Made by a program: the position numbers and the translations under genes
From: Candidatus Omnitrophota bacterium
GTDB lineage: Bacteria; Omnitrophota; Gorgyraeia; 1-14-0-20-64-10
NCBI GenBank assembly: GCA_016201735.1
Contig: JACQCH010000057.1
Coordinates: 18-64,017 of the forward strand
DNA length: 64,000 nucleotides
Direction: 5' to 3'
In this document: positions 32,761 to 59,913 of the stretch, one piece after another
Layout of the letters: the number at the start of each line of letters is the position of its first letter
Numbering within the stretch: position 1 is the first letter of the stretch
Notes under the pieces: model-generated
The model's input: the letters and a program-made list of their open reading frames with translations, nothing else
What the model was told of the DNA's origin: nothing
Databases searched by the model: none

Positions 32761-32964
32761 TGACCCCGCCCCTCCATGGGTTTCTCTGGAGCAAGGTGGG
32801 GGAGTACGTATGGGTGTGCTCTTCCGAACATGAGAGGTCAGACAGGGTACATCGAGGTAACTTCCAACTTGCTCCAGAGAATAAAAGCTCCTGGAGCTTT
32901 TCGGGACGCCCCCGATTCTTGTCCACCCAGCGAGGGCGTCCCGACCCATGGAGGGGCGGGGTGA
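32761..32964 (+). repeat. Structured repeat element copy E1 (19-bp terminal inverted repeats TGACCCCGCCCCTCCATGGGT / ACCCATGGAGGGGCGGGGTGA; nested hairpins)
   Basis: Perfect 19-bp inverted repeat closes a three-hairpin cluster: TCTCTGGAGCAAG...CTTGCTCCAGAGA, AAAGCTCC/GGAGCTTT and CGGGACGCCC...GGGCGTCCCG. The 3' end GGAGGGGCGGGGTGAAATG supplies SD + GTG/ATG for a 24-41-aa ORF. Confidence 0.6.
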
Positions 32965-33500
32965 AATGTACGACTTTCCATGGAACGTCCTGTTGGGTTC
33001 GGCCATCTCCCTATGCTCTGACATCGTTACTGTGAACAATCCATCCAGTAAGGCTCGATGCCGGAACTGGCCTGCCCTCTGACAGGACCCCGAGGAGCCA
33101 ACTCCACCCCGAGATGGGGTCGACGAGCGGGCCTGAGAAGCCCTCCCACGAGACGGGGCATATTCGATAAAGTGGTATGAAAGCCAGCCGACATTTTTTC
33201 TTGACAGGATCCAACCCCTTGCGGTACAAGAGAACCGTACCCTCAAGATCTTGTGGGGGAGGGAGCGCGACAGCTTGAGAGGTCCCCGTCAGCCTGATGG
33301 CAGGCAGAGGAGGTCCTCCTAAAGCCAAGAGTGAAACAGGCTTCATCCTAATGCTCCCCGAAGGACGATTCCTTCCCAGTCACAAGGATCCCAAGGACGT
33401 AGGGTATAATACAAATTAGGGGTTTTAAGGACACGGCAACTAGCCACGTGGGGGGTGGTGCTGTCTCACCCATCCCAAAGCGAAGAGGAGTTTTTACGCG

Positions 33501-36500
33501 ATGATCAAGGACACCAAACCGGTTACCTGGGGGCAAACTTCCGCTGCTGAGCACCCCAACGGCCAGCCGCAGGAGTTTGCCGCTCCCACGCACGGCCTGA
33601 ACATCCCCCTTTATTTCTCGGAAGCGGGAGTGGATCCGTTTCGCCAGGTGACCTGGGAGCTGCGGACCGCCTCCATCACCAATGAGCATGGAGAGGTGGT
33701 TTTCGAACAGGCGCAGGTGGAGGTGCCTTCCTTCTGGTCCCAGATCGCCACGAACGTGGTGGTCTCCAAGTATTTCCGCGGAGCCCTGGGCACCCCCCAG
33801 AGAGAAAACTCGGTCAAGCAGCTCATCAGCCGGGTGGCCAACACCGTTACGGAATGGGGAATTAAGGATAAATACTTCGCGACCCCCCAGGAGGCCGAAA
33901 ATTTCAGGGCGGAATTGAGCACCCTCCTGCTGACGCAACGGGCCTCTTTTAATTCCCCGGTCTGGTTCAATGTCGGGATCGAACCTCACCCCCAGTGCTC
34001 GGCCTGCTTCATCCTGTCGGTGGAAGACAAGATGGAGTCGATCCTGGACTGGTACCGGGTGGAAGGAATGATCTTCAAGTACGGGTCCGGGTCAGGGATC
34101 AACCTTTCCCCGATCCGATCCGCCAGGGAGCCCCTGGCCGGAGGGGGAACGGCCAGCGGGCCGGTCTCCTTCATGAGGGCGGCCGACGCTTCCGCCGGAG
34201 TGATCAAGTCGGGTGGAAAAACCCGCAGAGCGGCAAAGATGGTGGTGCTCAACGCCGACCATCCGGACATCGAGAAATTCATCTGCTGCAAATGGCAGGA
34301 GGAAAAGAAGGCCTGGACCCTGGTGGACGCCGGTTACGATTCCTCCATCGACGGAGAGGCCTACTCCAGCGTCTTCTTCCAGAACGCCAATAACTCCGTC
34401 CGGGCAACCGACGAATTCATGAAGGCGGCCCTGGAAGATAAGCCGTGGGATTTGAAGGCCGTCACCACGGCCCAGCCGTTTCAGACGGTCCGGGCCCGGG
34501 AGCTGCTCCATTTGATTGCCGAAGCGACGTGGAACTGCGGCGATCCCGGCATGCAGTTTGATACGACGATCAACCGCTGGCACACCTGCCCCAACACCGG
34601 GCGGATCAACGCCAGCAACCCCTGTTTTACAGGCGACGCCAAAGTCTACACCGATCGGGGGCTTATTCCGTTCAAAGAACTAGCCGAACGTGTTTCCCTT
34701 GGTGAGACCTTTCGAGTTTTCACTCATGATGCGACGAACGCTCATTCTCCGGCAGAGACGGTCAGCCTGACCCGGCCAACCCAGATCATGCAGACAGGCG
34801 TGAATGAGGTGTACCGGCTGCGATTCTCAAATGGGATAGAAGTGACCTGCACCAAGAATCATCGCTTCTTTACCCGGAACCGGGGCATGGTAGCCGCAGA
34901 GGATCTTCAACCGGATGATGAGATTCTAACGCTCAACCAGCCGGTCGAGTTCCCGGCCTCTTCCTTGGCCATCGATGCGGACCACGCAGCCATTTTTTCC
35001 GGCGGGCGGGCATCGGGGGGGGCCACCCACGGCTACAAACCGGTTCAATTACCGTCCGTCTGGACGACCCCCCTTGCGGAGTATCTTGGATATCTCGTCG
35101 GGGACGGCTGCATCAGGGACGGCTCTGATTCGCGCAACCGCCTCAGTACCGCCAGCGTTGTCTTTGGCGCTCCAGCAGACGCAGAAGAACTGGCGCCTCG
35201 CTTCCGCGCTCTCTTTCAGGAAATGGGCGTAGAGGAATTGCAGGAAGTGGAGATGCCCAATGGGACGTCGCAATTGCGAGTCAACCGAACGCCGGTGATC
35301 CGTTTCTTCAAGCAGCTCGGGGTTTCTACCGCCAAGGCGCCCGAAAAAGTGATTCCGCACACTCTGTTTAAAGCCCCAAAACATATCGTCGCAGGATTTC
35401 TCCGCGGACTCTTTACGGCGGACGGCTGCGTGTACGATGGAAAGAAATCTCGCTACGTTGGCTTGGGCAGCGTTTCAAAACAACTTTTGCTCGAAACCCA
35501 ACAGCTTCTGGCCAGTTTTGGAATCAAGAGCGGGATCTATTCAACCAGGGAACCCTTCGAGGCTTTCCCCTATACCAAGCGGGATGGGAGCCGCGTAGTG
35601 TACCGCACTCACCAGATCTATGATTTGCGAGTCAGCGGCCCAAGCATCGCCCGCTTCAAGGAACAGATCGGGTTCCTGACGGCAAACAAGCAGGCAAAGC
35701 TGGATCGGCTCATTGCTGAACACGAACTCTATCAGGTCAAGGAAACGGTCCGGCTGAAAGAGCGGACCTTCGTTGGTCTGGAGACGACCTACAACCTGAC
35801 GGAACCCAAGAACCACAGCTACATCGTGAATTCGTTAATAGTATCTAACTGCAGTGAATACATGCATTTAGATAACTCGGCGTGCAACCTCGCTTCATTA
35901 AATCTCATGAGGTTTCTCGACGACAGCGGCCGATTCAAGATCGCCGACTTCCGGGCGGCGGTGCGAACCATGACGATCGCGATGGACATCCTCGTGGATA
36001 ACTCTTCCTACCCGACGCCGAAGATCACGGAGAACGCCAAGAACTTCCGGGAACTGGGATTGGGGTACGCCAACCTGGGAGCCCTTCTGATGTCGCTGGG
36101 AGTTCCCTACGACTCCGATGAGGGCCGGGCCTACGCCGCCACCGTGACGGCCTTGATGTGCGGCGAGGCGTACCGGACCTCCGCGGAGATCTCCGGAGTC
36201 AAAGGGTCCTACGCCGGGTTCGTCAAAAACAAGGAACCTCAGCTTCACGTCATCCGGATGCACCGGGACGCCCTCATCCATGTGGACGATCGCATTGTCC
36301 CCGAAGAAATGTTCGCCGCCGCCGCCCGCACCTGGGAGGAGGCCCTGCGGCTGGGGACGCTCCAGGGGATCCGGAATTCGCAAGTCACCGTCCTGGCTCC
36401 CACCGGCACGATCGGATTCATGATGGACTGCGACACGACCGGCGTTGAGCCGGACATCGCCCTGATCAAATACAAGAAACTCGTGGGCGGGGGCTTGATC

Positions 36501-37517
36501 AAGATCGTCAACAACACGGTCCCTCGGGCTTTAAAGAAGCTCGGCTACTCTCCGGAACAGATTCAGGCGATCTGCGATTACCTGAACAAAGAGGGAATGG
36601 TCGAGGGAGCGCCGGGCCTGGACCCGAAACATCTGCCGGTTTTTGACTGCGCCTTCAAACCAATGAAAGGGACCCGGTCCATCCATTACATGGGTCACAT
36701 CCGGATGATGGGAGCCGTCCAGCCGTTCATCAGCGGGGCAATCTCCAAAACCGTTAACGTTCCTCCCGACGCTACGGTGGATGAGATCATGCAGAGCTAC
36801 ACCGAAGCATGGAAACTCGGCGTCAAGGCCGTTGCGATCTACCGGGACGGTTCCAAACGGGTGCAGCCGCTGTCCACCGGAAAAACCGAGGTGGCCGAGA
36901 AAGAATCTTCGGACCCCCCCAAGCACCGGCCGCAGCGGCGCTATCTGCCCGATGAGCGAAACGCCCTCACTCACAAATTCTCGATCGCCGGCCACGATGG
37001 GTACGTGACGGTCGGGCTCTACGAGGACGGAAAACCGGGCGAGATTTTCATTGTGATGTCCAAGGAAGGAACGGTGATCTCCGGCCTCCTGGACGCCTTC
37101 GCCACGGCGATCTCCCTGGCCCTGCAGTACGGAGTTCCTCTGGAGGCTCTGGTGAAGAAATTCAGCCACATGCGGTTTGAGCCGGCGGGGATCACTTCCA
37201 ATCCGCAGATCCGGTTCGCCCAATCGATTCTCGACTATGTCTTCCGCTGGATGGCTCTGAAATTCTTGCCTGCGGACAAGCAGCCCACTCCGCCAGCGAC
37301 CGTGACGGACCTGGCGGCCAATCAGGCCGACGTGACGCAGCCGAACTCGACCGCCGGAACCGGCTCCACCCTGGAGCCAAGCCGGCAGGCCATTCAAAGT
37401 CAATCCTTCCAGGGCCAAGTGGACGCTCCTCCCTGTCCGGACTGCGGGGCGATGATGATTCGTTCCGGCAGCTGCTACAAGTGCTTCAACTGCGGAGCCA
37501 CTTCCGGCTGCAGCTAA
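33501..37517 (+). CDS. nrdJ: Class II (adenosylcobalamin-dependent) ribonucleotide reductase NrdJ, intein-containing
   Basis: 1338-aa ORF. Exteins carry RNR motifs (...INASNP|CSEYMHLDNSACNLASLNL, C-terminal zinc ribbon CPDCG...CFNCG). SD aagaggag sits 8 nt upstream of ATG. Confidence 0.93.
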   Translation: MIKDTKPVTWGQTSAAEHPNGQPQEFAAPTHGLNIPLYFSEAGVDPFRQVTWELRTASITNEHGEVVFEQAQVEVPSFWSQIATNVVVSKYFRGALGTPQRENSVKQLISRVANTVTEWGIKDKYFATPQEAENFRAELSTLLLTQRASFNSPVWFNVGIEPHPQCSACFILSVEDKMESILDWYRVEGMIFKYGSGSGINLSPIRSAREPLAGGGTASGPVSFMRAADASAGVIKSGGKTRRAAKMVVLNADHPDIEKFICCKWQEEKKAWTLVDAGYDSSIDGEAYSSVFFQNANNSVRATDEFMKAALEDKPWDLKAVTTAQPFQTVRARELLHLIAEATWNCGDPGMQFDTTINRWHTCPNTGRINASNPCFTGDAKVYTDRGLIPFKELAERVSLGETFRVFTHDATNAHSPAETVSLTRPTQIMQTGVNEVYRLRFSNGIEVTCTKNHRFFTRNRGMVAAEDLQPDDEILTLNQPVEFPASSLAIDADHAAIFSGGRASGGATHGYKPVQLPSVWTTPLAEYLGYLVGDGCIRDGSDSRNRLSTASVVFGAPADAEELAPRFRALFQEMGVEELQEVEMPNGTSQLRVNRTPVIRFFKQLGVSTAKAPEKVIPHTLFKAPKHIVAGFLRGLFTADGCVYDGKKSRYVGLGSVSKQLLLETQQLLASFGIKSGIYSTREPFEAFPYTKRDGSRVVYRTHQIYDLRVSGPSIARFKEQIGFLTANKQAKLDRLIAEHELYQVKETVRLKERTFVGLETTYNLTEPKNHSYIVNSLIVSNCSEYMHLDNSACNLASLNLMRFLDDSGRFKIADFRAAVRTMTIAMDILVDNSSYPTPKITENAKNFRELGLGYANLGALLMSLGVPYDSDEGRAYAATVTALMCGEAYRTSAEISGVKGSYAGFVKNKEPQLHVIRMHRDALIHVDDRIVPEEMFAAAARTWEEALRLGTLQGIRNSQVTVLAPTGTIGFMMDCDTTGVEPDIALIKYKKLVGGGLIKIVNNTVPRALKKLGYSPEQIQAICDYLNKEGMVEGAPGLDPKHLPVFDCAFKPMKGTRSIHYMGHIRMMGAVQPFISGAISKTVNVPPDATVDEIMQSYTEAWKLGVKAVAIYRDGSKRVQPLSTGKTEVAEKESSDPPKHRPQRRYLPDERNALTHKFSIAGHDGYVTVGLYEDGKPGEIFIVMSKEGTVISGLLDAFATAISLALQYGVPLEALVKKFSHMRFEPAGITSNPQIRFAQSILDYVFRWMALKFLPADKQPTPPATVTDLAANQADVTQPNSTAGTGSTLEPSRQAIQSQSFQGQVDAPPCPDCGAMMIRSGSCYKCFNCGATSGCS
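34623..35849 (+). mobile_element. Intein (409 aa) with LAGLIDADG homing-endonuclease domain, inserted immediately before the catalytic Cys of NrdJ
   Basis: Begins CFTGDAKVYT (block A Cys1), block B TCTKNHRF, two LAGLIDADG motifs (LGYLVGDGC and AGFLRGLFTADGC), and ends ...IVNSLIVSN|C (Asn + Cys+1). Confidence 0.9.
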
Positions 37518-37906: not shown

Positions 37907-38222
37907 CCGACCCTCCGCGTTTTCCTCCTTCAGCGCGCGAGGGCCTTGGGTCTCTTTCTGAACCTGGCAACTGGCTACCCGCCACTTTTGGCGGGCCCTT
38001 TAGCTTTGCGACCCCGGATTACTCCGGGTGTGCCTTGAGACAGGTCCCCGCGTCTTTCAACCCATCTAGTTAATTTATACCTTACAAACCGGCTAGAAAT
38101 CAAGAGGTAAACATCGTAACTTAAATAGAATCATATATTTATAAACAAGCTTCTTTCTGTCTAGCGGCGCTTAGAACTGCTTAAATCCACTTAGGGTTTC
38201 AGGTGGCTAGAGGGGACTTTAG

Positions 38223-41200
38223 TTAGCTCGCCAGCGTCCGGGCGCGGCGCCGATTCTCTGGAGAAAAGACAAAGGAGAGGTACTGACTGAGGAAATCCAG
38301 GAAGACCCCCGTATTCGAGGTAACCACCAAAGGTCCTGCCGTCGGCAAAGGCGCAGGGGGAGGTGGAGGGGGAGAATAAATCACCGCTCCGTTAAAGATC
38401 ACCTGCCCTGGCGGGCTGTTGAGCAGACTCAGTGTCCCGCTCGGGGTGACGGTGCCTGAAATGTCCACGGAAACCCCGCTCACCTCAGAAGCGGCTGAAA
38501 CACCCAAGGAAGCCCCAGTGACCAGGACATCGAATGGATCGGCCAACAGGCCGATGACGCCGCCGGCCGTCAGAGAAGAATTGCCTCCCGCCGTCAGATT
38601 CAGAGCGGAGCCGTTGCCATCCAGGATCGATCCGCCGGCCGTCAGAACCACAGCCCCGGTGGTGGAGACTGTTCCAACGGTGATGTCGCCGCCCGGAACC
38701 AACGTCAGGTTCTTTGAACCTTGGGTGAGGCCATCCACCGCCATCGCTCCGGCGGTGGAATTGCCGATGGTGAGGACGCCGGTGGTCGTGACTTGATCCA
38801 GCTCCCCGTCGGTCAGGTTGAAATGCCCGGCGCCGGCTCCCAAGCCGACCGTGACTCCTGTGGAGGGCAGCAGGGTTACGCTGCCCGACCCGCTGTTGAT
38901 GAAGCCGTTTAACGCAATGTCGTCCGCTGTGATCTGCGCCGGCTGGCCCAGCGCGTTGATCGTCCTGGCGGCTGCCACGGTAAAGGTGCCGACCCCGTCC
39001 GTATTGGAGTCGGCGTTGGCCGTGAAGCCACCGGTCGTCACCGTCAGATTCCGGTCGACGGTGATGCCGTCCGCTCCGTTTGCAACCAGCCCTTTGAAGG
39101 TAGAGTCTCCGGTGGCGAAGCTCACCGTCTTTGCCGCTCCTGTCGCGCTTAAGGTAACGGTCCCGACGTTTCCGCTGTTGGCCGCGGTGATTCCATTCAC
39201 GATCACGTTGCCCGCCGTCTGAAGGGTCAGCCCATTGGAGGTGATCCGCTGGAGCTCCGCGCCGCTCACGTTCACTCCATTCGTAACGGCAGTACCGCCC
39301 AAACCGATTCCAGTCCCGTCGGAGTCGTTCAGGATCAGCGCCGCGGTCCCGCTGGTGATGCTGCCGGAAGCGGCCAGGTCGAAATTGTTCACAGTAAGGG
39401 TCAGGGGGTTGTTTGAAGTTGAAAGGGTCCGGCCGTTGGCAACGGTCAATGTTCCGCTGTTATCCCCAAAATTCCGGTCGGTGTCGATCACGGCCATCTG
39501 GTTCGTGGTCAGAGAACGGTTGAGCGTGATCCCATTATTGGCAAAAAGCTCTACCCCGCTTCCGCTGGCAGCGCCGATGGTCACATCCGAGGCCCCCTGG
39601 ACCGTGATGGAGCTGGCCCGACGCGTTAAGGCCCCCGCTCCCGACCCGTTGGTGCCGCGGGTTAAAGCTTCTCCGAGAGTAAGGGTGCCGGTGGTCTGCA
39701 GCCGGTCCATCTCGCTCTGGATCAGCAGGCCGGTCGATCCGATCGTCAAAGAAGCGTGCTGCGACCGGGCCAGATGAATCGCTCCGGATCCGGCATCGAC
39801 ATCCGCGTTGAGGGCAAAGTTGGCGCCCATTAAGGTCACCTCCCCTCCATTCGAAGCAACAGCGCTGTCGACGGTCAGAGTGCCCGTCCCGTCCGCGGCG
39901 CCGGATGTGCTGTGGGGAGAATCGGCTTCCAGGTAAAGGCCGCCGCCGGCCGTCGTGATCGGCCCGCTTACGGTGATGTGCCGCCCCGCCTGAAGGGTGG
40001 CTGATTTTCCAGTTCCATTAACCACGATGCTGGCCGCTGCGATGTCCGTGCCGGCGGCCACGGCAATCGACCCATCGGTCGTAGAAAGGTCCGTCAGGGT
40101 AATCGCATCCGCCTCACGAAGAGCGATGCCGCCCGTGCCGCTGACTGCCGCAATGACATCGCTCACGACTGTGTCCAGATTGATTCCAGTCACCGCCGAC
40201 AGGGTCAGTGTCGAACCGGTCACATTCGCGGCGGCCCCGTTGCCGTCGGTAATGGCGCCTCCAGAGGTGAGACTCACGGTGCTGGTCGTCCGGACCTGCC
40301 CCACAGCGAACCCGTTCGCGTCCCGGTAGGTGAGCGCCCCAGCCGCGTTCGCCGAGTCCGCCGCGTTGCGGGCGCTTAAGTTGACCGTGGTGAAGTCGTT
40401 GCTGGCGTTGTCCAGGGTGACCGCTGCACCAGAGTTGTTCAAGGTTTTGACCGCCAGCGTCGAACCCGCCATCGCACCGCTCTGCGTGATCGCCCCGCCG
40501 CCCGTCAGCGTCACTGTACCCGTCGTGTTCGCCGCCGCCGCATCAAACCCGTTTGCGTCCCGGTAGCTCAGTGCCCCCGCCGCATTCGACGTGTCCGCCC
40601 CGTTCCGGGCTCGCAGATCCACCGTCGTAAAGTCATTGCCAGCGTTGTTCAGCGTGATCGCTGACCCTGCATTGTTCAAGGTCTTCGCCGTCAGCGTCGT
40701 GCCGGTCATCGCACCGATCTGCGTGATCGCTCCCCCGCCGGTCAGTGTCACCGTGCCTGTCGTCCGAACTCCGGAGACGCGAAAGCCGTTCGTGTCCCGG
40801 TAAACCAGCGCCCCACCAACGTTCGCGTTGTCCGCCGCGTTGCGGGTGCTCAAGTTGACCGTGGTGAAGTCGTTGCTGGCGTTGTCCAGGGTGACCGCTG
40901 CACCAGAGTTGTTCAAGGTTTTCACCGTCAGCGTCGAGCCGGTTATCGCGCCGCTCTGGGTAATCACCCCGCCGGCTGTCAGCGTCACCGTGCCCGTCGT
41001 GTTCGCCGCCGCCGCATCGAACCCGTTCGCATCCCGGTAGGCGATCGCCCCCGCGGCATTGGCGCTGTCCGCCGTATCCCGAGACCGAAGGTCGACCGTG
41101 GTCGCATCGTTGGTGGCGGAGTTGAGCGTAATCGCAGCCCCCCCATTGATCAGCGTCTTGGCCGTCAGGGTGTTGGCGCTGATCGTGCCGCTGGGCTGGG

Positions 41201-43190: not shown

Positions 43191-43389
43191 ACTTTCTATT
43201 TACCGGGGTTGGCTATTTTTTCTCAATTTCATTTCAATCTCTTACATATCCAAGATTACTTGATCGTTAACGGAAAATTCAAGAGGGAAGAACGGTTTTT
43301 TTTCGAGTTTGGACCAAAGGGGAAAAGTTGCAACTACATAAATTGACACGGGGTGATACCGTTGTGATACGGTCTGGAGAGAGGCGTTT

Positions 43390-45195
43390 TTAAAACCCAA
43401 CGCGGCAAATCAGGTGCAGGCGAGGGCGGTCCTTCTCCTGGTCCCGATCCCCGATCGCCCAGCCAAAATCCATCTGAAGGAAACTCTCAGAGGTCGGCCG
43501 AAGTCGAAACCCACATCCCACCCCGCTTAATCTCATGTCCGCGTCCTCGTTGCTCTGTGGAGAGCGAAGGAACCCCTCCGCGAAATCCCAGAACCCGACC
43601 AGAAGGAGGGAGCGCCGCAGATGGTTGAACGTGGAGCGGGCGTTCGCGGGCCCCGGGACAAACCGTTCCAGCGGCGCCCGAAGCTCCACGGTAGTCTGAA
43701 CCCCGTAATCGGCGAGGAACTCTCCCTCGGGATAGCCCCGGACCGTGTCGAACCCACCCAGCCGGAACTGTTCCGCGGGAACCAGCCGATTGGTGGTCAA
43801 CTGAAAGGCCCCCCGAAGAATCAGAGAAGTTCCCCAGGGTGCCTGTTGGACCCGAACCCCATTTCCGTTCCAACGAAAGAAGGATCCCCCTGCGTTGGCC
43901 CGGCTGGCGGCTGGATCTTCCGCGTGAGATCCCCCTAACAGACTTCCTATCCCCCACCGGAGCTCCTGGGTAAGAAGGGACTGTCCCTTTCTATCCTGTT
44001 CCAGAAGATTGGTTCCTAGATAGAGGACTCGAAGGTCATCCTTGGAGGTAATCCGGTCATCCAGCCGGGTCCGGATTCGTTTCCAGTCGAACCCGGTATT
44101 TACCTCCAGCTCCATCCCGGTATGGTAGACCCAGGGGATAATCAGGCCTGGGCTCACCGTCAATGCGTCTCCTCGGGCAAGGAGACCTTTCAAATCTCCT
44201 CCGATCGAAGATTTCACCCCGCTCACATCCAAGGTGGCCGTTAGACCCGATGGCTGAAGCGGCCGCAGGTAACTGAACGTCCCTCCCTTCAACCCTCCGA
44301 ATTCGCTCACGATCCCTCGAACAGACACCTGATCCTCACGACCGGTCAGATTGCCGTGCGAGAGTAGAATACTCTGGCGAATCTGTCCGGTCACCTTGGT
44401 TCCTAATGTATCGATGCTGTAGCTGGCGTGGAAGGGCCGATGGTCGGTGACTTGCAGAACCAGGTCGGTGGTCCCGGGTTGAGTCCCGGGGGTAAGGACC
44501 AGCTTCGCCTTCCGGTCCGGGTGGGCGTTGATCCGGTTCAACTGCTTCTGGAGGCGCGGCAGCCAGAGGATTTCCCCCGGCTGAACCTTCATCTGTCTGG
44601 CCAGAAGCTCCGTCGAGAAGAACCGGTTCCCCACCACCTGCAGACGGCCCACCTTCCCTTCGATGACCCGAACCCGAATCAGACCTTCCTCGACGGTCTG
44701 AGCGGGAATGACCGCCCGGGAGGTCACGTAGCCCCTTCCCCGGTACCAGCGGGTGATCCCCTCGGCCGCCGCTTTCAGTTCCTCCAGCGTGACGGTCCGG
44801 TTGATGATGGGACCCACCAATTTCCTCAATTCCTCATCGGGCAGGAGAGTGGCTCCCTCGACCGCCACACGGCGGACAGTGACCTCGGGGACTTGAAGGG
44901 TCGGGGCGGACGTCGGTTCCTCCGGAGGAACTTCAACAGGAGCGGGAACAGGAGCGGGTGCTTCTAACTTTTTGGGACGGCGCAGCCGTTCTTCCTCCGA
45001 GCCGACTTCCGTCTGCCGGGTGGAATCATCGGCAGATGCAGCCCTGATCCAGCCAAACCCTAGAGAGAGCCCCAGCAGACAAACCGAAACTGACGTCTTG
45101 AGAGTGCCCGTTAAGTTCACCGGACGGTGAGGACCTTGGTCGTTTTCCCGTCGGAAAGAACCACCTGCTTCTTTCGAATCTCCATCACCTGCCAC
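43390..45195 (-). CDS. TpsB outer-membrane transporter (ShlB/FhaC/HecB family, Omp85 superfamily)
   Basis: Signal peptide; POTRA region (VRRVAVEGATLLPDEELRKLV...RVIEGKVGRLQVVGNRFF); 16-strand barrel ending ...ICRVGF. Confidence 0.85.
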   Translation of the reverse strand: MAGDGDSKEAGGSFRRENDQGPHRPVNLTGTLKTSVSVCLLGLSLGFGWIRAASADDSTRQTEVGSEEERLRRPKKLEAPAPVPAPVEVPPEEPTSAPTLQVPEVTVRRVAVEGATLLPDEELRKLVGPIINRTVTLEELKAAAEGITRWYRGRGYVTSRAVIPAQTVEEGLIRVRVIEGKVGRLQVVGNRFFSTELLARQMKVQPGEILWLPRLQKQLNRINAHPDRKAKLVLTPGTQPGTTDLVLQVTDHRPFHASYSIDTLGTKVTGQIRQSILLSHGNLTGREDQVSVRGIVSEFGGLKGGTFSYLRPLQPSGLTATLDVSGVKSSIGGDLKGLLARGDALTVSPGLIIPWVYHTGMELEVNTGFDWKRIRTRLDDRITSKDDLRVLYLGTNLLEQDRKGQSLLTQELRWGIGSLLGGSHAEDPAASRANAGGSFFRWNGNGVRVQQAPWGTSLILRGAFQLTTNRLVPAEQFRLGGFDTVRGYPEGEFLADYGVQTTVELRAPLERFVPGPANARSTFNHLRRSLLLVGFWDFAEGFLRSPQSNEDADMRLSGVGCGFRLRPTSESFLQMDFGWAIGDRDQEKDRPRLHLICRVGF

Positions 45196-47657: not shown

Positions 47658-47660
47658 CCG

Positions 47661-50125: not shown

Positions 50126-50157
50126 ACCCCTATATTATACGCCACGCCCCTGTCGTT

Positions 50158-51807: not shown

Positions 51808-51830
51808 TGGGATATCCCTTTTATCTCAGA

Positions 51831-52286
51831 TTAGAATCCGCCGGAGCCGCTGGTCCCATTGGAGACATAGATGTCGTCGCCCGCCGCGCCGGTGAGAGCC
51901 CCAGTATTATCAATGCCGGTAATGCCTGCCGTGTTGTCGATCGACACCGACCAGATGATGTAGTATAAGCCATTGGCGGACTTCCCGTACTGGTACTGGG
52001 CGCTGGAAGTCGAGAAGGCGTCGATGAGGGCCGTGCCGATCATTTTCGGCGAGGCGCCCGTTAAGGCCGACTCCCAGGTAGCTCCTGTGGCCGGGTAGGC
52101 CTTGCTGTGGTGGATGTAGTACGATTCCACGGCCGCCTGCAGAGCTCCACACTCTGCCGCCGCCTTAGCGACGTTCCCTTCATCGATCATGCCTCGCAAC
52201 CTCGGCAGGGCAATCCCCAGTAAAATGGCAATCACTGCGATGACGATGACTAACTCAATTAAGGTGAAACCTTTTTCTTTTTTCAT
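51831..52286 (-). CDS. Major pilin / GspG-like pseudopilin
   Basis: KGFTLIELVIVIAVIAILLGIALP; AAAECGALQAAVESYYIHHSKAYP resembles the GspG alpha-beta loop. Confidence 0.75.
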   Translation of the reverse strand: MKKEKGFTLIELVIVIAVIAILLGIALPRLRGMIDEGNVAKAAAECGALQAAVESYYIHHSKAYPATGATWESALTGASPKMIGTALIDAFSTSSAQYQYGKSANGLYYIIWSVSIDNTAGITGIDNTGALTGAAGDDIYVSNGTSGSGGF

Positions 52287-53509
52287 CGAATCCCTCCATG
52301 TTGAAGAACCTTCACCATATCGAACATAGGAAACAATAATGAAGCCATGATAAACGCGACGACACCGCCCATCACGATGAGAAGAATCGGTTCTAAAAGA
52401 GTCATCATCTGCTTCAAGCTGTAATTCACCCGCAGTTCATAGTAGTCGGCAATCTTTTCCAGCATGGTGTCCAGCCGGCCCGACTCCTCTCCTACCTGAA
52501 TCATCTGGATCACGTCCGGATAGAAGACCTTCCCCACAGAAAGGGTGGCCGCCATCCGTTCTCCCTGCTCCACAGCGGTCTTTACCCGTTTCAATTCCTG
52601 AAAGATCACCTGATTGTCCACCACCCCGCCGGCCGTCTCCAGGGCGCCGACAATGGGGACACTGCTCTCCACCAAGGTGGCCAAGGTCCGGGCGAACCGG
52701 GCCACCACCGTCTGATGAAGCGCCAAACCCAGAACAGGAATCTTTAGAAGAAACCGGTCGATTCTGAAACGCAACGTGGGGATCCGGGCCGCGGCCCCCA
52801 AACCGACCATCGCTCCGACGGCGGCCGGGAGGATGACCCACCCGTGGGACCGGAGAGCGCTCCCAATAACCAGCAGGATCTGTGTCGGCAGTGGAAGAGG
52901 GATCCCCGCCTTAGCGAAAAGACTGGCGAACTGCGGCACCACAAAGGCAACGAGGAACAGGATCAGCAGAGTCGCCGCACCCAACAGCACGGCCGGATAA
53001 AGGAGCGCCCCCTTGACCGCCCGGGTCAATGCCAGGTCCCTCTCGATAAAGTTCGCGAAACGGGTCAGGATGGTATCCAGCTGGCCGCTGGCCTCCCCCA
53101 CCGCCGCGAGATTCACCATCAGTTTCGGGAAGACGGCGGGGTAGTGACTTAACGCTTGAGAGAAGGGCTCCCCTCCTTCAACCTCCCGGGAAAGCCCTTC
53201 GAACGCCTCCCGGAGGAGTCGGTCTGTCGTCTGGGATCCGACGGCTTGAAGAGACGCAATCAAAGCAACCCCTGCCCCCACTAGGTTGGACAATTGGATC
53301 GAAGCCAGAAGCAGTGCCTCCTGCGAGACACTCCCTCCCAGCCGGACGGTCAAGATTCCCCGGAACCCGGCCGCCATCTCCTCCATCCGGGTAACCAGGT
53401 ATCCCATCTTCCGCAGGCGATCGACGAGAGACTCCTTCGAGTCCGCCTCCAGAACCCCTTTCACGAGGCGACCCTGTTCATCCCGAGCTTGATAAGCAAA
53501 GGCCGGCAT
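52283..53509 (-). CDS. pilC: Pilus/T2SS inner-membrane platform protein (PilC/GspF family)
   Basis: Two GspF repeats, 3 TM; ATG immediately preceded by GGAGGGGCGGGGTG from element E2. Confidence 0.85.
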   Translation of the reverse strand: MPAFAYQARDEQGRLVKGVLEADSKESLVDRLRKMGYLVTRMEEMAAGFRGILTVRLGGSVSQEALLLASIQLSNLVGAGVALIASLQAVGSQTTDRLLREAFEGLSREVEGGEPFSQALSHYPAVFPKLMVNLAAVGEASGQLDTILTRFANFIERDLALTRAVKGALLYPAVLLGAATLLILFLVAFVVPQFASLFAKAGIPLPLPTQILLVIGSALRSHGWVILPAAVGAMVGLGAAARIPTLRFRIDRFLLKIPVLGLALHQTVVARFARTLATLVESSVPIVGALETAGGVVDNQVIFQELKRVKTAVEQGERMAATLSVGKVFYPDVIQMIQVGEESGRLDTMLEKIADYYELRVNYSLKQMMTLLEPILLIVMGGVVAFIMASLLFPMFDMVKVLQHGGIR

Positions 53510-53690
53510 CACCCCGCCCCTCCGGAGTCATGAAGCGGCCGCGGCCGCTTCACTGTGCCGAAGGCACAGATGCCCTCGGCTGTCTCTCGCTTTAATCGAT
53601 CACCCCATTCAAAAAACATCTGTTGCGCCTCCTTGAACCTTAAAGAATCCATCCTCTCTGCCGAGGGCATACTCCGGAGGGGCGGGGTCA
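53510..53690 (-). repeat. Structured repeat element copy E2 in the pilB-pilC intergenic region
   Basis: Terminal inverted repeats TGACCCCGCCCCTCCGGAGT (just after pilB TGA) and ACTCCGGAGGGGCGGGGTG (SD + GTGATG of pilC). Internal hairpins: an 11-bp stem ATGCCCTCGGC/GCCGAGGGCAT, CUGUGCC-UUCG-GGCACAG, and the GAAGCGGCCGCGGCCGCTTC palindrome. Confidence 0.6.
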
Positions 53691-53692
53691 AT

Positions 53693-55381
53693 TCAAATCT
53701 CCTGTGTGACGCGCAGCACCTCATCCAGGGTCGTCACCCCGGCGGCCGCCTTGGCGAGACCATCCTCCCGAAGGGCCCGCATCCCCTTCCCCACCGCATG
53801 AGATTTAAGCTGTCCTGAAGAGCTCTTTCCAATCGTCAGGCGGTTCATCTCCTCATCCATCACCATCAATTCAAAGATCCCGATCCGTCCTCGGTACCCG
53901 GCCTGACTGCACTTCCGGCACCCTTTCCCTTTCATCCAATGGCCGGCCGCCCCAATGCCAAGACGCTTCCCCGCCTCCTCTTGGGTCGGGTCCGCCACCT
54001 TGCAGTCAGGACAAACGGTCCGGACCAGACGCTGAGCGGCCACCCCGATCAGGCTTGAGGCGACGAGAAATGGTTCGATCCCCATATCGAGCAGGCGCGT
54101 GACGGCGGTGGCGGCGTCGTTGGTGTGCAGGGTGGAAAAAACCAGGTGCCCCGTCAGGGCCGCCTGAATGGCGATCTCCGCCGTCTCCCGGTCCCGGATC
54201 TCTCCCACCATGATGACATTCGGATCCTGCCGCAGGATGGACCGAAGTCCCGTCGCGAAGGTCAGCCCCACCCCCGGATTGACCGGAATCTGCCGCACCC
54301 CATGCAGACGGTACTCGACCGGATCTTCAATGGTCACGATGTTCTGCTCCGTGGCGTTCAGGGTAGCCATGGAAGCATACAGGGTGGTTGTCTTTCCCGA
54401 GCCGGTCGGGCCGGTGACAAGAACAATCCCCCAGCTCCGTTTTAAAAGATCCTGATACCGGGAGAGAAGTTCCGGATCCATCCCCAGCTCCGCCAATCCG
54501 ATCTGAAGACCCTTGGTGTCCAGGAGCCTCAGCACCACCGTTTCCCCGTCGATCGCCGGCATCACCGAAACCCGCAGATCCACCTCATGCCCTTCCATGG
54601 CGACTCTGAAACGGCCGTCTTGGGGTTTCCGCCGCTCCGCGATGTCCAGGCCGGCCAGGATCTTGACGCGGGAGACGATCGCCGACTCCAAATGTTTGGG
54701 CAGAACCGTCGCTTCCCGCAAGATGCCATCCACCCGGAATCGAACCCGAAAAATATCCCTTTCCGGCTCCAGGTGAATGTCCGAGGCCCGGGCCCGAATC
54801 GCGTCGCTCAAGAGGAGATTCACCAGGCGGACGACCGGCGGTTCCGAGACCAATCCCTGAAGATGTTTGAGTTCCAGGGACTGGCCGGCCTTAAGCCCCA
54901 GCCTTTCCTGACTCAGATCGGCAACCAGATCGTCGAGGCGCCCCTTGGCCCCGTAATATTCCTCCAGGGCCTGCAGGATCTCATGCTCCGTCGCCACGAC
55001 CGGTTCCACCGTCAAGCCGGTGCGCAGGCGCAGCTCATCCATCGCGATCAGATTCAACGGATCGGCCGTGGCCACTGTTAAGGTTTGTCCCAATTTGAAC
55101 AAGGGAATCAGCTGATGCTTCCTCGCCAGCGCTTCCGGGACAACATCCAGGACCTGCGGGTCAATCAGATAGCTTGCCAGTTCGACCCGGGGGACCCCCA
55201 GGAGACGACTCAGCCAGTGCGCCATGGTCGGCGGATCGAGAAACTTCAGGCGGATCAGGGTTTGCCGGATCGTCTGTCCCGTACGGACCGCTTCCCCCTG
55301 GGCCTGATGCATCTGTTCAGCGGTAATCAAGCCCTCTTCCACCAGCTTCTCTTCGGGCCGCTTCACTGCTTCTGTTTTCAC
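53693..55381 (-). CDS. pilB: Pilus/T2SS assembly ATPase (PilB/GspE family)
   Basis: N-terminal GspE_N domain; Walker A GPTGSGKTT; Asp box; tetracysteine CPDCK...CRKC; GTG start inside a GAGGCGGGGTGA junction. Confidence 0.9.
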   Translation of the reverse strand: MKTEAVKRPEEKLVEEGLITAEQMHQAQGEAVRTGQTIRQTLIRLKFLDPPTMAHWLSRLLGVPRVELASYLIDPQVLDVVPEALARKHQLIPLFKLGQTLTVATADPLNLIAMDELRLRTGLTVEPVVATEHEILQALEEYYGAKGRLDDLVADLSQERLGLKAGQSLELKHLQGLVSEPPVVRLVNLLLSDAIRARASDIHLEPERDIFRVRFRVDGILREATVLPKHLESAIVSRVKILAGLDIAERRKPQDGRFRVAMEGHEVDLRVSVMPAIDGETVVLRLLDTKGLQIGLAELGMDPELLSRYQDLLKRSWGIVLVTGPTGSGKTTTLYASMATLNATEQNIVTIEDPVEYRLHGVRQIPVNPGVGLTFATGLRSILRQDPNVIMVGEIRDRETAEIAIQAALTGHLVFSTLHTNDAATAVTRLLDMGIEPFLVASSLIGVAAQRLVRTVCPDCKVADPTQEEAGKRLGIGAAGHWMKGKGCRKCSQAGYRGRIGIFELMVMDEEMNRLTIGKSSSGQLKSHAVGKGMRALREDGLAKAAAGVTTLDEVLRVTQEI

Positions 55382-55773
55382 CCCGCCTCTCCCTCATCCA
55401 TCGGCTCACCCAACGCCGTGCGGACCTTCTGAATCAGCTCCGCCGCCCGATAGGGCTTGCCTAGGATCGCGTAACTTTCTGTGAGATCCAAACTCTTTTG
55501 GGTCACGGAAATATCCTGCGATAAAGCGGTCAGGAAAATCACCGGGATCCGCTGTGTGATGGGATCTTCCCTTAAAGTGTGATAGGTCTCCACCCCGTCC
55601 TGATTCGGCATCAGGATGTCCAGCAGAATCAGATCCGGTTTTTCCTCCCGAGCCACGGCAATTCCCGAGGGGCCGTCCGGGGCTTCCAGGATTTCAAACC
55701 CGTTGGCGGCCAGCCGCGAGTTCAAGAGAGCTCTCACGTCCGGTTCGTCATCCACAATCAGTATTTTTTTCAC
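55378..55773 (-). CDS. Stand-alone response-regulator receiver
   Basis: ILIVDDEPD...LILLDILMP...; GTG start inside a partial copy of the repeat element. Confidence 0.8.
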   Translation of the reverse strand: MKKILIVDDEPDVRALLNSRLAANGFEILEAPDGPSGIAVAREEKPDLILLDILMPNQDGVETYHTLREDPITQRIPVIFLTALSQDISVTQKSLDLTESYAILGKPYRAAELIQKVRTALGEPMDEGEAG

Positions 55774-57437
55774 CCCGCCCCTCCTTTGGTCTCTCTGCTT
55801 AAGAGACCTTGGCTTTCCCTCTGTTCTCTCGCCCGCCGTTGGGCCAGCTTCAGAACAACCGCCAGCTCCGATCCTTCTTCAGGAACAAATGCCGATCCCC
55901 AGCGCAGCCGCTCCGGGTGGATCCATTCCGGGGAGGACCCCAACACCGCTTCCAGCCGCTGGCGTATCGCCTGAAAGCCGTCGGAATCGGTCACGGAAAG
56001 AAGCACCAGGCCTCCCTCCGGGTTGACCAGCACCCGGTCCTCCCGAGAGATGTGCCGGCGCAGCAGGTTCATCACCTCGGAACGCTCCAGAGAACCGTTC
56101 GACTCCGCCCAAAGAACCTGGCAGGCCAGAGAGGTCCCTTCCCGGGCCGCCTGCTCCCGCATGACCCGAAATTCTTCCGTCAAGGCAAAGGCCGGCGTAT
56201 ACAAAGGGAGGCTCACCGTGAAGGTGGTTCCTTGACCCGGCTCGGAGGCCGCCCGAATGGTCCCCCCATGAAGCTGGACGATCTCCTTGACGATCGTCAG
56301 CCCCAGGCCGGTTCCCCGCTGTGCGATCTGGTCCGGGGCCTTGGGCTGGAAAAATTTTTGGAACAACTTGTACTGTTCCTTCTTCGGAATCCCGATTCCC
56401 GTATCCGAAACGGACAATTCCGCGGACCGGCCGTGGGCGTTTAAACTCACGGTGATCGATCCTTCCGCCGGCGTGAACTTGATGGCGTTGGTCAGCAGGT
56501 TCTCGACCACCTGGCCCAGCCGGACCCGGTCCCCGTAGACTGCAGGAATCGAGTCCGCCGCCAACTTCAATTTCCTTGACAGAATCAACGGCTGGCAATG
56601 GGTCTGCACCTCCCGGACCACCTCCGCCAGATCCATCGGCTTGCGATGGAGGACCATCCGTCCCGCCTCTATCCTGGAAACATCCAAGAGCTCGGTGACG
56701 AGCTTGATCATCCGCTCCGACTGATTCTTGACGAGACGAAGCGTTTCCGTCTGCCTGGAACTTAAAGATCCCCCCAAACCATCCAGGAGTTGCTGGGTTC
56801 CCTCCATGATCAAGGTCAGCGGGGTTCGAATCTCGTGGCTCACCTGCGCCACCGTCTCGGAAGTTACCTTCGCCTTTAATCTCCAACGTTGAGAGGCCGT
56901 TTCCATTTCACGGAGAAGAACCGCCTGAGCGATGACCTGCCCCAACCGCTGGAGGAACCGCTGGGCGGCCGGTTCCCTCAACCAGAGGAACCGGCGAGAG
57001 GAGGAAAAGCTGGACAAGTTCACAACCCCCACGGTTTGCCCTTCCACAACCAGGGGGAGACAACAGATGGTCTTGACCGGACGGAACCGGCCGTTCGCCT
57101 TCCTCGGAGGAAGAACGAATCGGGGATCCTTGGTCGCGTCCAGGACGCAAAAGGCTTTTTGGGATCGGGCCACCCAGCCGCAAAGTCCTTCTCCCATCCG
57201 GAATTTCATGTTCCGCCCATGAGGTTTGACTCGAGCCCCGTGGGCCCAGCGGACGGACAGCTCCTCGGTAGATCCGTCCAGGACCATGATCGAGATCCGA
57301 TCCGCCTCGGAGAGCTCCAAAAGGGCTTTGCAGCAGCCAACCATCAGCTGCTCCAGATCCAACTGGATCTCCAGTTTCTTAAGCCAGCGATCCAACAATC
57401 CCTTAGACCGAACGCGCATCGCCCCTCCCATTTCCAA
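55770..57437 (-). CDS. GAF-domain sensor histidine kinase with C-terminal extension
   Basis: GAF region (LCGWVARSQKAF), H-box VSHEIRTPLTLI, HATPase (DTGIGI, GTGLGLTI), ~130-aa C-terminal tail whose last 13 codons lie inside the partial repeat element. Confidence 0.85.
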   Translation of the reverse strand: MEMGGAMRVRSKGLLDRWLKKLEIQLDLEQLMVGCCKALLELSEADRISIMVLDGSTEELSVRWAHGARVKPHGRNMKFRMGEGLCGWVARSQKAFCVLDATKDPRFVLPPRKANGRFRPVKTICCLPLVVEGQTVGVVNLSSFSSSRRFLWLREPAAQRFLQRLGQVIAQAVLLREMETASQRWRLKAKVTSETVAQVSHEIRTPLTLIMEGTQQLLDGLGGSLSSRQTETLRLVKNQSERMIKLVTELLDVSRIEAGRMVLHRKPMDLAEVVREVQTHCQPLILSRKLKLAADSIPAVYGDRVRLGQVVENLLTNAIKFTPAEGSITVSLNAHGRSAELSVSDTGIGIPKKEQYKLFQKFFQPKAPDQIAQRGTGLGLTIVKEIVQLHGGTIRAASEPGQGTTFTVSLPLYTPAFALTEEFRVMREQAAREGTSLACQVLWAESNGSLERSEVMNLLRRHISREDRVLVNPEGGLVLLSVTDSDGFQAIRQRLEAVLGSSPEWIHPERLRWGSAFVPEEGSELAVVLKLAQRRAREQRESQGLLSRETKGGAG

Positions 57438-57801: not shown

Positions 57802-57802
57802 A

Positions 57803-58424: not shown

Positions 58425-58540
58425 TCCTAAGTTTTTGAAAGTTAAGTTTGATAATTTTTATTACTCTTCATCACTTTTAAGTGTGGCCGATTGGAGCAGA
58501 AAAAATCAAGGGGGTTTAAAAAATTTAGTAGTCTATAAAT

Positions 58541-59653
58541 CTATCTAGACCGCAAAGCCCAGCTGACCAGACCAGCCAAGAGGATGAATCCTACGGGGGT
58601 AAAGGTCCAGGAATTGTTGACCCAGGTTTTACTGCAGGCAATCAGGGTTGTCGACCAGAGGAAAATCAGAAAAAGGGCCTTCAGCTGATGGGGCAACCAG
58701 GAGGTGACAAAGGTGCGGCCCCGGCGGATCTCCAACCAACCCCAAAGGACCAGCCCGACGAGAATGAGAAGCAAAACCAGACCAACTGCCTTTCCTACCC
58801 AGACCGGAAGAACCGCCCGTTCAACGATCCAAAAGTCAAGATTGTTCGCGATTAACCAGGCTGGGAGAACCCACAAAACCCAGGTCACCGCGAACCAACG
58901 TTCCAGCGGACGGACGGCCAGAGGCAAGGTCCAGGTGGGCTCCAAGGTAAGAATTGCTATCCCAAGACTGATTCCTCCGCACAGCCCAATCAGATGCTCG
59001 GCCACCTTCCACCAGTCCACCGGAATTCCTAGGGTACCGCCGATCCCCTGCACCCAGGCGGCCAGCGGAAACCCAATCCCAAATCCAATCGCCCCCGCTA
59101 CCGCCAGCTTCAAGGAGGTCCTGTCCTGCCGCCACACCCCAACGTAAGCGGAAACCAGCGCCCAGCTGCTTAAAAGAATCACCGCCATTAATTCCCGGGT
59201 CGCCAAATCCTGGGGACCCGCCAGCCGTCCCCAGATAAGACGATCCACAAGAAACCAGACCAGGAAAAGGCCGCCGGCGATTATTGCCCGTTCCCAAGGG
59301 CGATATTTCGGAAGACTCAAGCCCAATCCGAGCCCAAGAGCTCCCAGGCCTCCCCAGGCGAACCCGATCAATCCCAGGGAACCGATCGCCTCCCAAGAAC
59401 CTTGATACGCGAGAGAGACGAATCGGCCGTAGCTTAACGCCCCACCCACGGCAAAGCTAAGAGATCCAATGACAGCCGCTCCAACCCAACGTGGGCCCCC
59501 TGTCACCGCGGCGATGCTCAAACCGGCCATCGCCCCGGCAATCGCGGACCCCCGCTCATGGCCATGCTGGCCCCGAATCCCCCACGCCAAGGTCATGGCC
59601 AGGGTGATCACGGCCAACTCCCGCCAACGAAGTCGAATCCGAGAGAAACTCAC
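58541..59653 (-). CDS. Polytopic inner-membrane protein of unknown function
   Basis: About 10 predicted TM helices; GTG start (59653) supplied by the 3' end of repeat element E3 (GGAGGGGCGGGGTGAGTTTC...). Confidence 0.5.
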   Translation of the reverse strand: MSFSRIRLRWRELAVITLAMTLAWGIRGQHGHERGSAIAGAMAGLSIAAVTGGPRWVGAAVIGSLSFAVGGALSYGRFVSLAYQGSWEAIGSLGLIGFAWGGLGALGLGLGLSLPKYRPWERAIIAGGLFLVWFLVDRLIWGRLAGPQDLATRELMAVILLSSWALVSAYVGVWRQDRTSLKLAVAGAIGFGIGFPLAAWVQGIGGTLGIPVDWWKVAEHLIGLCGGISLGIAILTLEPTWTLPLAVRPLERWFAVTWVLWVLPAWLIANNLDFWIVERAVLPVWVGKAVGLVLLLILVGLVLWGWLEIRRGRTFVTSWLPHQLKALFLIFLWSTTLIACSKTWVNNSWTFTPVGFILLAGLVSWALRSR

Positions 59654-59798
59654 CCCGCCCCTCCTTTGGTAGGGACGCCTTTCAGGCGTCCCAGAAATCT
59701 TTCGTAAGATTTCTCTCTCTGGCACAGGTGACTCGCCGACCCCTCTCGGTTGACCACCCTCCACCTGTGCCAGAGAGCCCAAAGGAGGGGCGGGGTCA
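59650..59798 (-). repeat. Structured repeat element copy E3 forming the 5' leader of the membrane-protein gene
   Basis: Terminal inverted repeats TGACCCCGCCCCTCCTTTGGG / CCAAAGGAGGGGCGGGGTG. Internal 16-bp stem CTCTCTGGCACAGGTG/CACCTGTGCCAGAGAG, hairpin AGAAATCTT-ACGA-AAGATTTCT, and hairpin GGGACGCC-TGAAA-GGCGTCCC, which is homologous to E1. Confidence 0.6.
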
Positions 59799-59825
59799 TT
59801 CGTGTTCCACGTATTTTAACAAAAA

Positions 59826-59870: not shown

Positions 59871-59913
59871 GGGGCTGTGACCAGCCACCGGCCGTCACCG
59901 GCGATGCAGAAAT

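Follow-up and report, generated by a model that had tools for sequence, protein, structure and literature searches.

A probable mobile repeat family of Omnitrophota, proposed to bridge stop/start junctions between genes as a translated relay

A family of structured repeats is dispersed over a 64,000-nt stretch of Candidatus Omnitrophota DNA, referred to below as the window and assigned to this phylum by its PilC homologues. The original prediction, made from the letters of the window, described three full copies (here E1, E2, and E3) and one 3′ partial copy, and this count was confirmed in three ways: the 13-mer GGAGGGGCGGGGT has seven exact occurrences in the window, namely three inverted pairs and one solo site, with an eighth site carrying one mismatch; the paired-arm pattern gives six matches (three loci on both strands) versus 0.00 in 100 shuffles; and the three arm pairs are the best three inverted repeats of the entire window, 19, 18, and 18 nt in length and each 100% complementary. 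On the evidence set out below, we estimate at roughly 70% the probability that the repeat represents a non-autonomous mobile family of Omnitrophota, resembling miniature inverted-repeat transposable elements (MITEs), that bridges stop/start junctions as a translated relay.

Two of the full copies are attached to genes of the minus strand. E2 separates pilB (T2SSE ATPase; 53693–55381, −) from pilC (T2SSF; 52283–53512, −), the latter being served by its 3′ arm. The spans first given for E1 and E3 were found to hold, whereas that of E2 with its flanking TGA triplets is 53509–53690, and E2, E3, and the partial copy are all read on the minus strand. In E2, the 5′ TGA (53690–53688) is followed by the 5′ arm (53687–53676), and the 3′ arm (53523–53512) by the 3′ TGA (53511–53509), with 176 nt from arm to arm (2 mod 3). 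The 3′ arm of the element is laid out as a Shine-Dalgarno (SD) sequence, GGAGG, a 6-nt spacer, and GTG. The earlier view that this arm constitutes the SD and start codon of the downstream gene stands for the SD and GTG, with the qualification that in E2 the native pilC ATG (53509–53507) comes next, in the same frame as the GTG (53512–53510). The 5′ repeat of E2, thought to abut the pilB stop codon, is indeed close to it, the stop lying 2 nt from the 5′ TGA and not being identical with it. E3 (59650–59798, −) consists of the 5′ TGA (59798–59796), arms at 59795–59784 and 59664–59653, and the 3′ TGA (59652–59650), with an arm-to-arm length of 143 nt (2 mod 3). It supplies the GTG start (59653–59651) of a gene for a 370-residue membrane protein directly downstream (58541–59653, −), at the point where a cluster of regulator and pilus genes begins.

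The remaining copies show the repeat without a complete partner. E1 (32761–32964, +), with flanking TGAs at 32761–32763 and 32962–32964, arms at 32764–32775 and 32950–32961, and an arm-to-arm length of 198 nt (0 mod 3), has CTGA at its 5′ junction and is located in the intergenic region of the divergent genes DUF1802 and nrdJ, upstream of nrdJ; that it is an orphan with no flanking open reading frame (ORF) attached, as had been proposed, was borne out. The partial copy (55770–55808, −), at the junction between a histidine kinase and a receiver gene, comprises a small hairpin followed by CCAAAGGAGGGGCGGGGTGA and matches the 3′ end of E3 over 26 nt at 96% (blastn), and is thus of the E3 type. 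A solo 3′ arm with one mismatch (GGAGAGGCGGGGTGA; 55378–55392, −) is situated at the GTGA overlap of the receiver stop and the pilB start.

To follow the family beyond the window, paired arms were scanned for in one genome per species, the flanks being left free in the search pattern. Of the 42 loci obtained (given L numbers where they need to be told apart), 22 come from metagenome-assembled genomes (MAGs) of Omnitrophota and from three Planctomycetia-labelled MAGs, one of which is syntenic with the window, and have the same ends and the same four-way-junction fold. A scan of metagenomes contributed 17 further loci. After duplicates and three oddities with odd flanks (L003, L058, and L060) had been dropped, the window, MAGs, and metagenomes together yielded 36 distinct copies, to which the counts below refer. 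They measure 143–198 nt from arm to arm and occur as single units, not in tandem arrays. The 12-nt terminal inverted repeats (TIRs), CCCCGCCCCTCC and GGAGGGGCGGGG, are invariant in all 36, the arms also having been the search criterion, and their pairing extends to 18–19 perfect pairs in the three window copies. Subfamilies combine common hairpin modules differently, with only the arms conserved between them. At least 12 copies are present on the contigs of MAG ERP125453_co1_528, several in each of five other MAGs, and three full copies plus two relics in the 64 kb of the window. A search for copies with degenerate arms, by blastn of all cores against the window and the collected loci, returned only the fragment already known; E2 had no blastn match among the PLSDB plasmids; and an exact look-up of the PilB of the window gave no record.

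The other 20 scan loci, which contain the 12-mer pair, were set aside as unrelated, being long, G-rich perfect palindromes (CCCCACCCCCGCCCCTCCCC...) or GC-rich chance hairpins; their hosts are Prevotella, Rufibacter, Pontibacter, Capsulimonadaceae, Burkholderiales, Streptomyces, and Micromonospora. Twelve G-rich, nearly perfect palindromes of ~140–200 nt (L007, L008, L033, L038, L011, L039, L040, L020, L037, L041, L012, and L029) open with CCCCACCCCCGCCCCTCCCC or CCCTCCCCCCGCCCCTCCCC and have the 12-mer in common with the Omnitrophota element, but differ from it in their flanks and in their single-hairpin fold. They were found in Prevotella, Rufibacter, Pontibacter, a Capsulimonadaceae chromosome (three copies), Burkholderiales, Xanthobacteraceae, and an unclassified bin, and may constitute separate MITE-like families.

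More detailed comparison of the 36 copies revealed what the original prediction had missed: the 5′ TGA is usually the stop codon of the upstream gene, the old start codon survives beside it, and an in-frame mini-ORF runs from there through the element. TGA triplets on one strand, that of the gene direction, flank every copy, four of which have TGAA at the 5′ side. Directly before the 5′ TGA, 19 copies have an A, nine a G, six a T, and two a C, so that the 5′ junction is an NTGA with an old start overlapping the stop in 34 of 36 (P = 0.003 against an expectation of 75%). In 26 of the 36, the 5′ TGA closes a long upstream ORF (of up to 1243 codons) and the 3′ G+TG opens a long downstream ORF; at these intercistronic copies the other frames are short and the flanking genes co-directional. 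The flanking genes are genuine and in many cases essential; the pairs joined in this manner include uppS and cdsA, L25 and pth, cvpA and dnaG, pgsA and engA, the N- and C-terminal halves of a thiamine pyrophosphate (TPP) enzyme, two heptosyltransferases, ugd and an epimerase gene, PHP and ribD, and NlpC and a dipeptide epimerase. In the proteins encoded downstream, Pfam domains start as early as residues 1–6, and the GTG of the element is therefore their real start.

The mini-ORF begins at the old start of the 5′ junction and extends across the entire element to a stop codon within the 3′ GTGA. In E2, it occupies 53509–53691 (−), with a TTG start (53691–53689) 1 nt past the pilB stop, 60 codons (LTPPL...SGGAG), and an end at the TGA overlapping the new GTG; in E3, it occupies 59650–59799 (−), from the old ATG (59799–59797) of an ATGA junction through 49 codons (MTPPL...KGGAG) to the 3′ TGA of the GTGA overlap. 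Complete mini-ORFs, of 49–61 codons, are present in 27 of the 36 copies, the peptides starting with (M/V/L)TPPL and ending with GGAG, whereas an open frame of 50 codons is expected in only ~23% of cases from base composition (P = 6e-11). Counted as stop-free frames, the old-start frame is open in 29 copies and the other two forward frames in 12 and seven. Furthermore, 29 of the 36 copies, which among them show 12 different lengths, measure 2 mod 3 from arm to arm (P = 8e-9). In the main subfamily, the cores have diverged to a mean identity of 73% and show six different lengths, all 2 mod 3, with arms that are 100% identical. The rule applies mainly to intercistronic copies, being obeyed by 24 of 26 of these versus five of 10 others (Fisher P = 0.01). 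Of the four copies of a subfamily that has an additional A after the 5′ TGA, two (L051 and L054) measure 160 nt from arm to arm, by which phase is kept, and the other two (L049 and L061) are among the seven frame exceptions. The L049 copy (841–1004) measures 165 nt counting the extra 5′ A (0 mod 3), with the old ATG in frame with the downstream gene throughout the element, which may thus add 55 residues to the N-terminus of the host protein instead of specifying a separate mini-ORF. Taken together, length phase and open frame point to a putative translated relay that would keep stop and start coupled.

An open frame in 27–29 of 36 copies and lengths that keep codon phase might also be expected if the ~50-residue product were itself functional, that is, if the repeats were a family of small-protein genes. 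The peptides are, however, only 19–58% identical outside the arm-encoded ends (MTPPL and GGAG), with no common core; they are Arg/Gly-rich translations of the hairpins, and inverted cores encode different ones. A profile of 23 mini-ORF peptides gave a single match in a collection of 5.8 billion proteins, and because gene callers almost never call these mini-ORFs, that search is uninformative on their distribution. We regard a functional small protein as scarcely credible.

The same frame data bear on a plain neutral MITE, which would transpose to any TGA, with junction copies surviving longest, since imprecise deletions at such sites would harm the adjoining genes, and with translation of the mini-ORF being irrelevant. 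TIRs, TGA flanks, and multiple dispersed copies suit any MITE; E1 and L035 are located away from genes, as a plain MITE allows; and the predicted mini-ORF peptides are not conserved between subfamilies. Such an element does not, however, account for a length of 2 mod 3 that persists over 12 length classes despite divergence of the cores to 57–88% identity, for the excess of open old-start frames over the other two, or for a frame rule that is confined mainly to intercistronic sites. In addition, dnaG, pth, cdsA, and engA rely on an SD and GTG locked in a helix of −40 kcal/mol, and some opening mechanism must therefore operate. Overall, we consider a plain neutral MITE unlikely.

The locking helix is part of a fold common to E1, E2, and E3, which are predicted to form one architecture—a closing helix, one long hairpin, and two shorter hairpins—with folding energies of −125, −104, and −109 kcal/mol, respectively, and corresponding z-scores of −8.2, −7.7, and −11.9. 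The stems of internal hairpins that had been described as homologous in E1 and E3, namely the long CTCTCTGG stem and the GGGACGCC stem, are indeed common to both. The GC closing helix had been put at 19–20 bp; it is stable as stated, but 18–19 bp in length. Alone it is worth −40 to −45 kcal/mol, and it contains the SD and start codon, in agreement with the claim that both are locked in a very stable helix. Covariation, which had been suggested as a check, was found in the E2 subfamily: pairing holds in 95.5% of cells versus 42–46% in controls with slid partners, compensatory double changes occur in 16 of 47 pairs, and none of 500 shuffles reaches the observed values. The hairpin loops vary freely. 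The sense RNA exceeds the antisense RNA in stability by a mean of 4.1 kcal/mol (Wilcoxon P = 0.008), with G–U pairs about twice as frequent on the sense strand, a bias that fits selection on the RNA.

Correia and ERIC elements have been reported as modules of RNA processing or stability, and the Omnitrophota repeat might likewise be a substrate of RNase III (or another RNase) or a protective structure within the operon mRNA, the upstream and downstream portions of which it would separate or stabilize. The perfect closing helix of 18–19 bp, the stable hairpins kept by compensatory changes, and the sense-strand enrichment in G–U pairs would all agree with this. A processing module nevertheless leaves unexplained the constraint on frame and length and the exact NTGA and GTGA junctions, and a cut within the helix would hit the SD and start region of essential genes. 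As the sole explanation it appears quite improbable, although it is compatible with a translated relay and not exclusive of it.

The original prediction favored, as one possibility, an undescribed leader RNA gated by a ligand, a protein, or a small RNA, in which the helix masks the SD until such a factor opens it. Full sequestration of the SD and start codon and conservation of the structure speak for a leader of this type. Conservation is nevertheless limited to the arms, the hairpin modules differing between subfamilies and occurring in both orientations; the genes downstream have no function in common (among them are pilC, cdsA, pth, dnaG, engA, and ribD, and genes for a receiver, a membrane protein, an epimerase, and a heptosyltransferase); and relatives lack the element at orthologous sites. 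Searches of Rfam, at gathering thresholds for the window and by E-value for each copy, returned only noise (RsmV at 10 bits, mir-6505 at 24 bits, and snoR9 at 17 bits). A gated leader is thus very improbable, and we do not retain it. The other possibility raised at the time, an RBS-carrying MITE (RBS, ribosome-binding site), is supported by the TIRs, the TGA repeats, the many unrelated loci, both core orientations, and the empty sites in relatives.

With respect to core orientation, at least five copies carry the core reversed with respect to the flanking TGAs: it is so in L021, L036, L013, and L064, and L015 and L026 are opposite to each other. Occurrence of the core in both orientations relative to the TGAs indicates that the TGA belongs to the target and not to the element. 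The majority orientation prevails by about 4 to 1, a ratio given no P value because the majority was defined after inspection of the data. With respect to empty sites, pilB and pilC overlap directly in relatives (TGATG in L043 and TAATG in L044), where E2 is absent, as it is also at pilB/pilC in L045; the window sequences flanking E2 join as ...GGAGATTTGAAT-TGA-TGCCG. E3 is absent in L046, in which the intergenic region is ~230 nt shorter. Two contigs with a PilC identical to that of the window, hence from the same population, both end inside E2, as expected of a repeat. Overall, the element shows most features of a MITE: small size (below ~300–500 bp), an interior with no transposase gene and no ORF other than the mini-ORF, TIRs, a flanking repeat, dispersed copies, and presence/absence between relatives. 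Target-site duplications of 3 bp are typical of IS5/IS1031-, IS3-, and IS30-like enzymes.

In L046 (9650–10000; MAG CAYJTC01, ERP125453_co1_454), the pilB–pilC junction holds another insert of ~350 bp, flanked by repeats of the ATCCACGA/TCGTGAAT type and carrying a 53-residue ORF (MKVQSYKELEVWKKG...). The product, for which no Pfam match was found, is one that we take to resemble the four-helix-bundle proteins of 23S rRNA intervening sequences. The same junction has therefore been invaded independently by another element.

Several other types of structured or mobile DNA were considered and rejected. A retron non-coding RNA was dismissed on account of the many copies and the lack of a reverse transcriptase gene, an integron attC site because the conserved ends differ, and hairpin ends of the IS200/IS605 type because TIRs and flanking repeats are present. 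REP, BIME, and REPIN elements are palindromes of 20–40 nt without target-site duplication and are associated with a RAYT (TnpA-REP) gene, whereas the present units are 143–198 nt in length, with TIRs and TGA flanks, and a Pfam scan of window ORFs revealed no Y1-transposase domain. Fusion by stop-codon read-through was discarded because upstream gene, mini-ORF, and downstream gene are in three different frames.

Relics of the element show what is left behind when a copy is lost. The fragment at 55770–55808 provides the SD and GTG (55773–55771) of the receiver gene, and the histidine-kinase ORF reads through it, ending in ...TKGGAG and a stop at the GTGA. Relatives have an extra receiver gene exactly at the position of the fragment, which is gone from the window; comparison of window positions 55770–57437 with L044 (2920–3378) and L046 (7185–7607) shows that one of two receivers between the GAF histidine kinase and pilB has been lost. 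Judged from the sequence, a deletion evidently removed the receiver gene together with the 5′ three-quarters of a copy. At the solo arm (55378–55392), the preceding receiver ends in ...DEGEAG and a stop in the mini-ORF frame, and relatives have unrelated sequence there; the arm is probably the relic of a deleted copy. Solo 3′ arms at GTGA junctions were found twice in the window and in L016 and L046, and the upstream ORF always ends in ...G(G/E/V)AG and a stop in the mini-ORF frame. That the surviving part is the 3′ arm is to be expected once this arm serves as the RBS and start of a gene.

A mechanism that would connect these features can be proposed as follows. The element would insert at the TGA of a stop/start overlap (ATGA, GTGA, TTGA, or TGATG) with duplication of the 3-bp TGA, by which the upstream stop would be kept at the 5′ end, and the last G of the element plus TG would create a new GTG in the old frame, behind the SD of the element itself (GGAGG with a 6-nt spacer). 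One −4 overlap would in this way become two −4 overlaps linked by a translated spacer. In the mRNA, pairing of the 5′ arm to the SD and to the start codon, at −40 to −45 kcal/mol, would bar free initiation until a ribosome terminating at the 5′ TGA or initiating at the old start covers the 5′ arm and opens the helix. A ribosome covers ~12 nt ahead of it, a span that corresponds to the whole 5′ arm. Translation of the mini-ORF would then bring a terminating ribosome onto the SD-GTGA, leading to termination-reinitiation. The downstream gene would thus stay coupled to the upstream gene, and copies could persist between essential genes. At the four intercistronic copies with a broken mini-ORF, a terminating ribosome would still open the helix, which may suffice. 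Copies would eventually decay by deletion to solo 3′ arms, retained as the RBS and start of the host gene.

A further proposal, which we put forward only tentatively and hold to be possible but doubtful, is that the transposition machinery actively targets SD-NTGA overlaps resembling the 3′ end of the element (GGAGG-N7-TGA), and that termini and body have evolved as a self-contained coupling relay. Such a system might allow cost-free colonization of essential operons, with decay lastingly rewriting RBSs and start codons of the host (ATG to GTG, with a new SD) in genomes throughout Omnitrophota.

A number of points weigh against a mobile translated relay. With respect to mobility, Pfam revealed no transposase in ~40 window ORFs, and the collected loci contain no arm pairs over long range or at insertion-sequence distance, and hence no autonomous element with these ends. 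TGA triplets were found at all 36 copies upon the suggested check for target-site duplication, but the relatives are only ~75% identical and offer no near-identical empty allele, so that we infer the exact 3-bp duplication. In-place inversion between the arms could be an alternative source of the inverted cores, and the enrichment at junctions could result from survivorship instead of targeting: junction copies may be hard to lose by imprecise deletion, and enrichment from this and from targeting are inseparable here. With respect to the relay, nine of 36 copies, four of them intercistronic, lack a complete mini-ORF, and its transcription and translation are deduced from sequence, gene callers almost never calling it (one database match). 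The P values are optimistic owing to ascertainment by exact arms and to the non-independence of copies within a subfamily. The G–U asymmetry could stem from a transcription-linked C-to-T mutation bias, and the upkeep of three perfect hairpins is left unexplained by a relay alone.

Among known systems, the closest analogue is MIRU, the mycobacterial interspersed repetitive unit (Supply et al., 1997; summarized by Delihas, 2011, PMC3184786), a family of intercistronic repeats in polycistronic operons, co-transcribed with the operon, whose small ORF has ends that overlap the stop and start of the adjacent genes. MIRU and the present element are alike in their intercistronic position, a small junction-overlapping ORF, short direct repeats, empty sites, and GC-rich inverted repeats; co-transcription with the operon is a feature of MIRU. 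MIRU units, however, are 40–100 bp in length and form variable-number tandem repeats with imperfect TIRs and 4-nt direct repeats, whereas the Omnitrophota element is a single unit of 143–198 nt with perfect TIRs of 12–19 nt, an invariant TGA, a four-way junction, and a built-in SD-GTG. No sequence similarity between the two was found, and the host phylum differs. The element thus works like MIRU, yet is not a member of it.

Correia/CREE (Neisseria), ERIC/IRU (enterobacteria), and RUP/BOX (pneumococci) resemble the element in being small and dispersed, with TIRs and without a transposase (reviewed in part in PMC3184786). These elements also form stable mRNA hairpins and can alter the expression of flanking genes, and BOX, too, is modular. 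We know of no Correia, ERIC, RUP, or BOX element that regenerates a stop and a start at an overlap or stays an ORF from junction to junction; the target-site duplication of Correia is TA, and the positions of such MITEs relative to genes are much looser. Neisseria REP2 and inverted repeats of Borrelia plasmids lie directly upstream of genes and bring an RBS and start codon (PMC3184786). Unlike the present element, both bring a promoter as well and operate where transcription units begin, and no stop/start overlap logic, mini-ORF, or closing SD helix has been described for them.

In MS2 coat/replicase and rpmI–rplT, the downstream RBS is occluded by upstream translated sequence and opened by ribosomes. 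The mode of action proposed here is alike, except that coupling there is built permanently into a single operon, whereas the Omnitrophota repeat would place the whole coupling device on a mobile unit found at many unrelated junctions. Termination-reinitiation at ATGA and TGATG overlaps has been described (Huber et al., 2019, PMC6728339; reviewed in PMC12548453). A search of the literature turned up no account of an element rebuilding a stop/start overlap, nor any for Omnitrophota.

The window contains several other features. Two c-di-GMP-I riboswitch aptamers were detected on the minus strand, at 60143–60230 (72 bits) and 37963–38044 (59 bits). The former follows matches to a sigma-70-like promoter at 60288–60254 and is itself followed by an 82-residue ORF, a 16-bp hairpin (59825–59876), E3, and the cluster of regulator and type IV pilus genes; c-di-GMP may thus control the pilus locus by read-through. 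The latter is located just downstream of a two-partner secretion (TPS) pair (38223–45195, −), which adjoins the pilus genes and comprises a ShlB/FhaC-type transporter (601 residues) and a 1655-residue exoprotein that has a TPS domain and DUF5649 repeats. An intein bearing a LAGLIDADG homing-endonuclease domain (residues ~400–783) splits a class II (B12-dependent) ribonucleotide reductase, which is 1338 residues long (33501–37517, +). A perfect, loopless 34-nt palindrome at 10205–10238 (AAAGCGGTGAGAGGATT/AATCCTCTCACCGCTTT) spans the 3′ end of an RF2-like gene (10229–11161, −) and the gap to secA (7298–10198, −). The RF2 ORF matches the PCRF profile only from position 33, which would fit the usual programmed frameshift of prfB.

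The repeat illustrates a way in which mobile DNA can persist within operons and cause no polar damage, its ends rebuilding the stop, the start, and the RBS, and its in-frame body being such that ribosomes can be passed from gene to gene. With respect to annotation, many Omnitrophota start codons and SD sequences are derived from the element, some C-termini ending in ...GGAG are its relics, and Omnitrophota assemblies break at these repeats. If the relay is true, the element would be a natural portable cassette for translational coupling, even at L25/pth, uppS/cdsA, and cvpA/dnaG, and would offer a testable system for termination-reinitiation and for unmasking of the SD by ribosomes. The element also extends a logic of the MIRU type beyond mycobacteria, into a phylum that is unrelated to them and uncultivated, and to an element with true TIRs.

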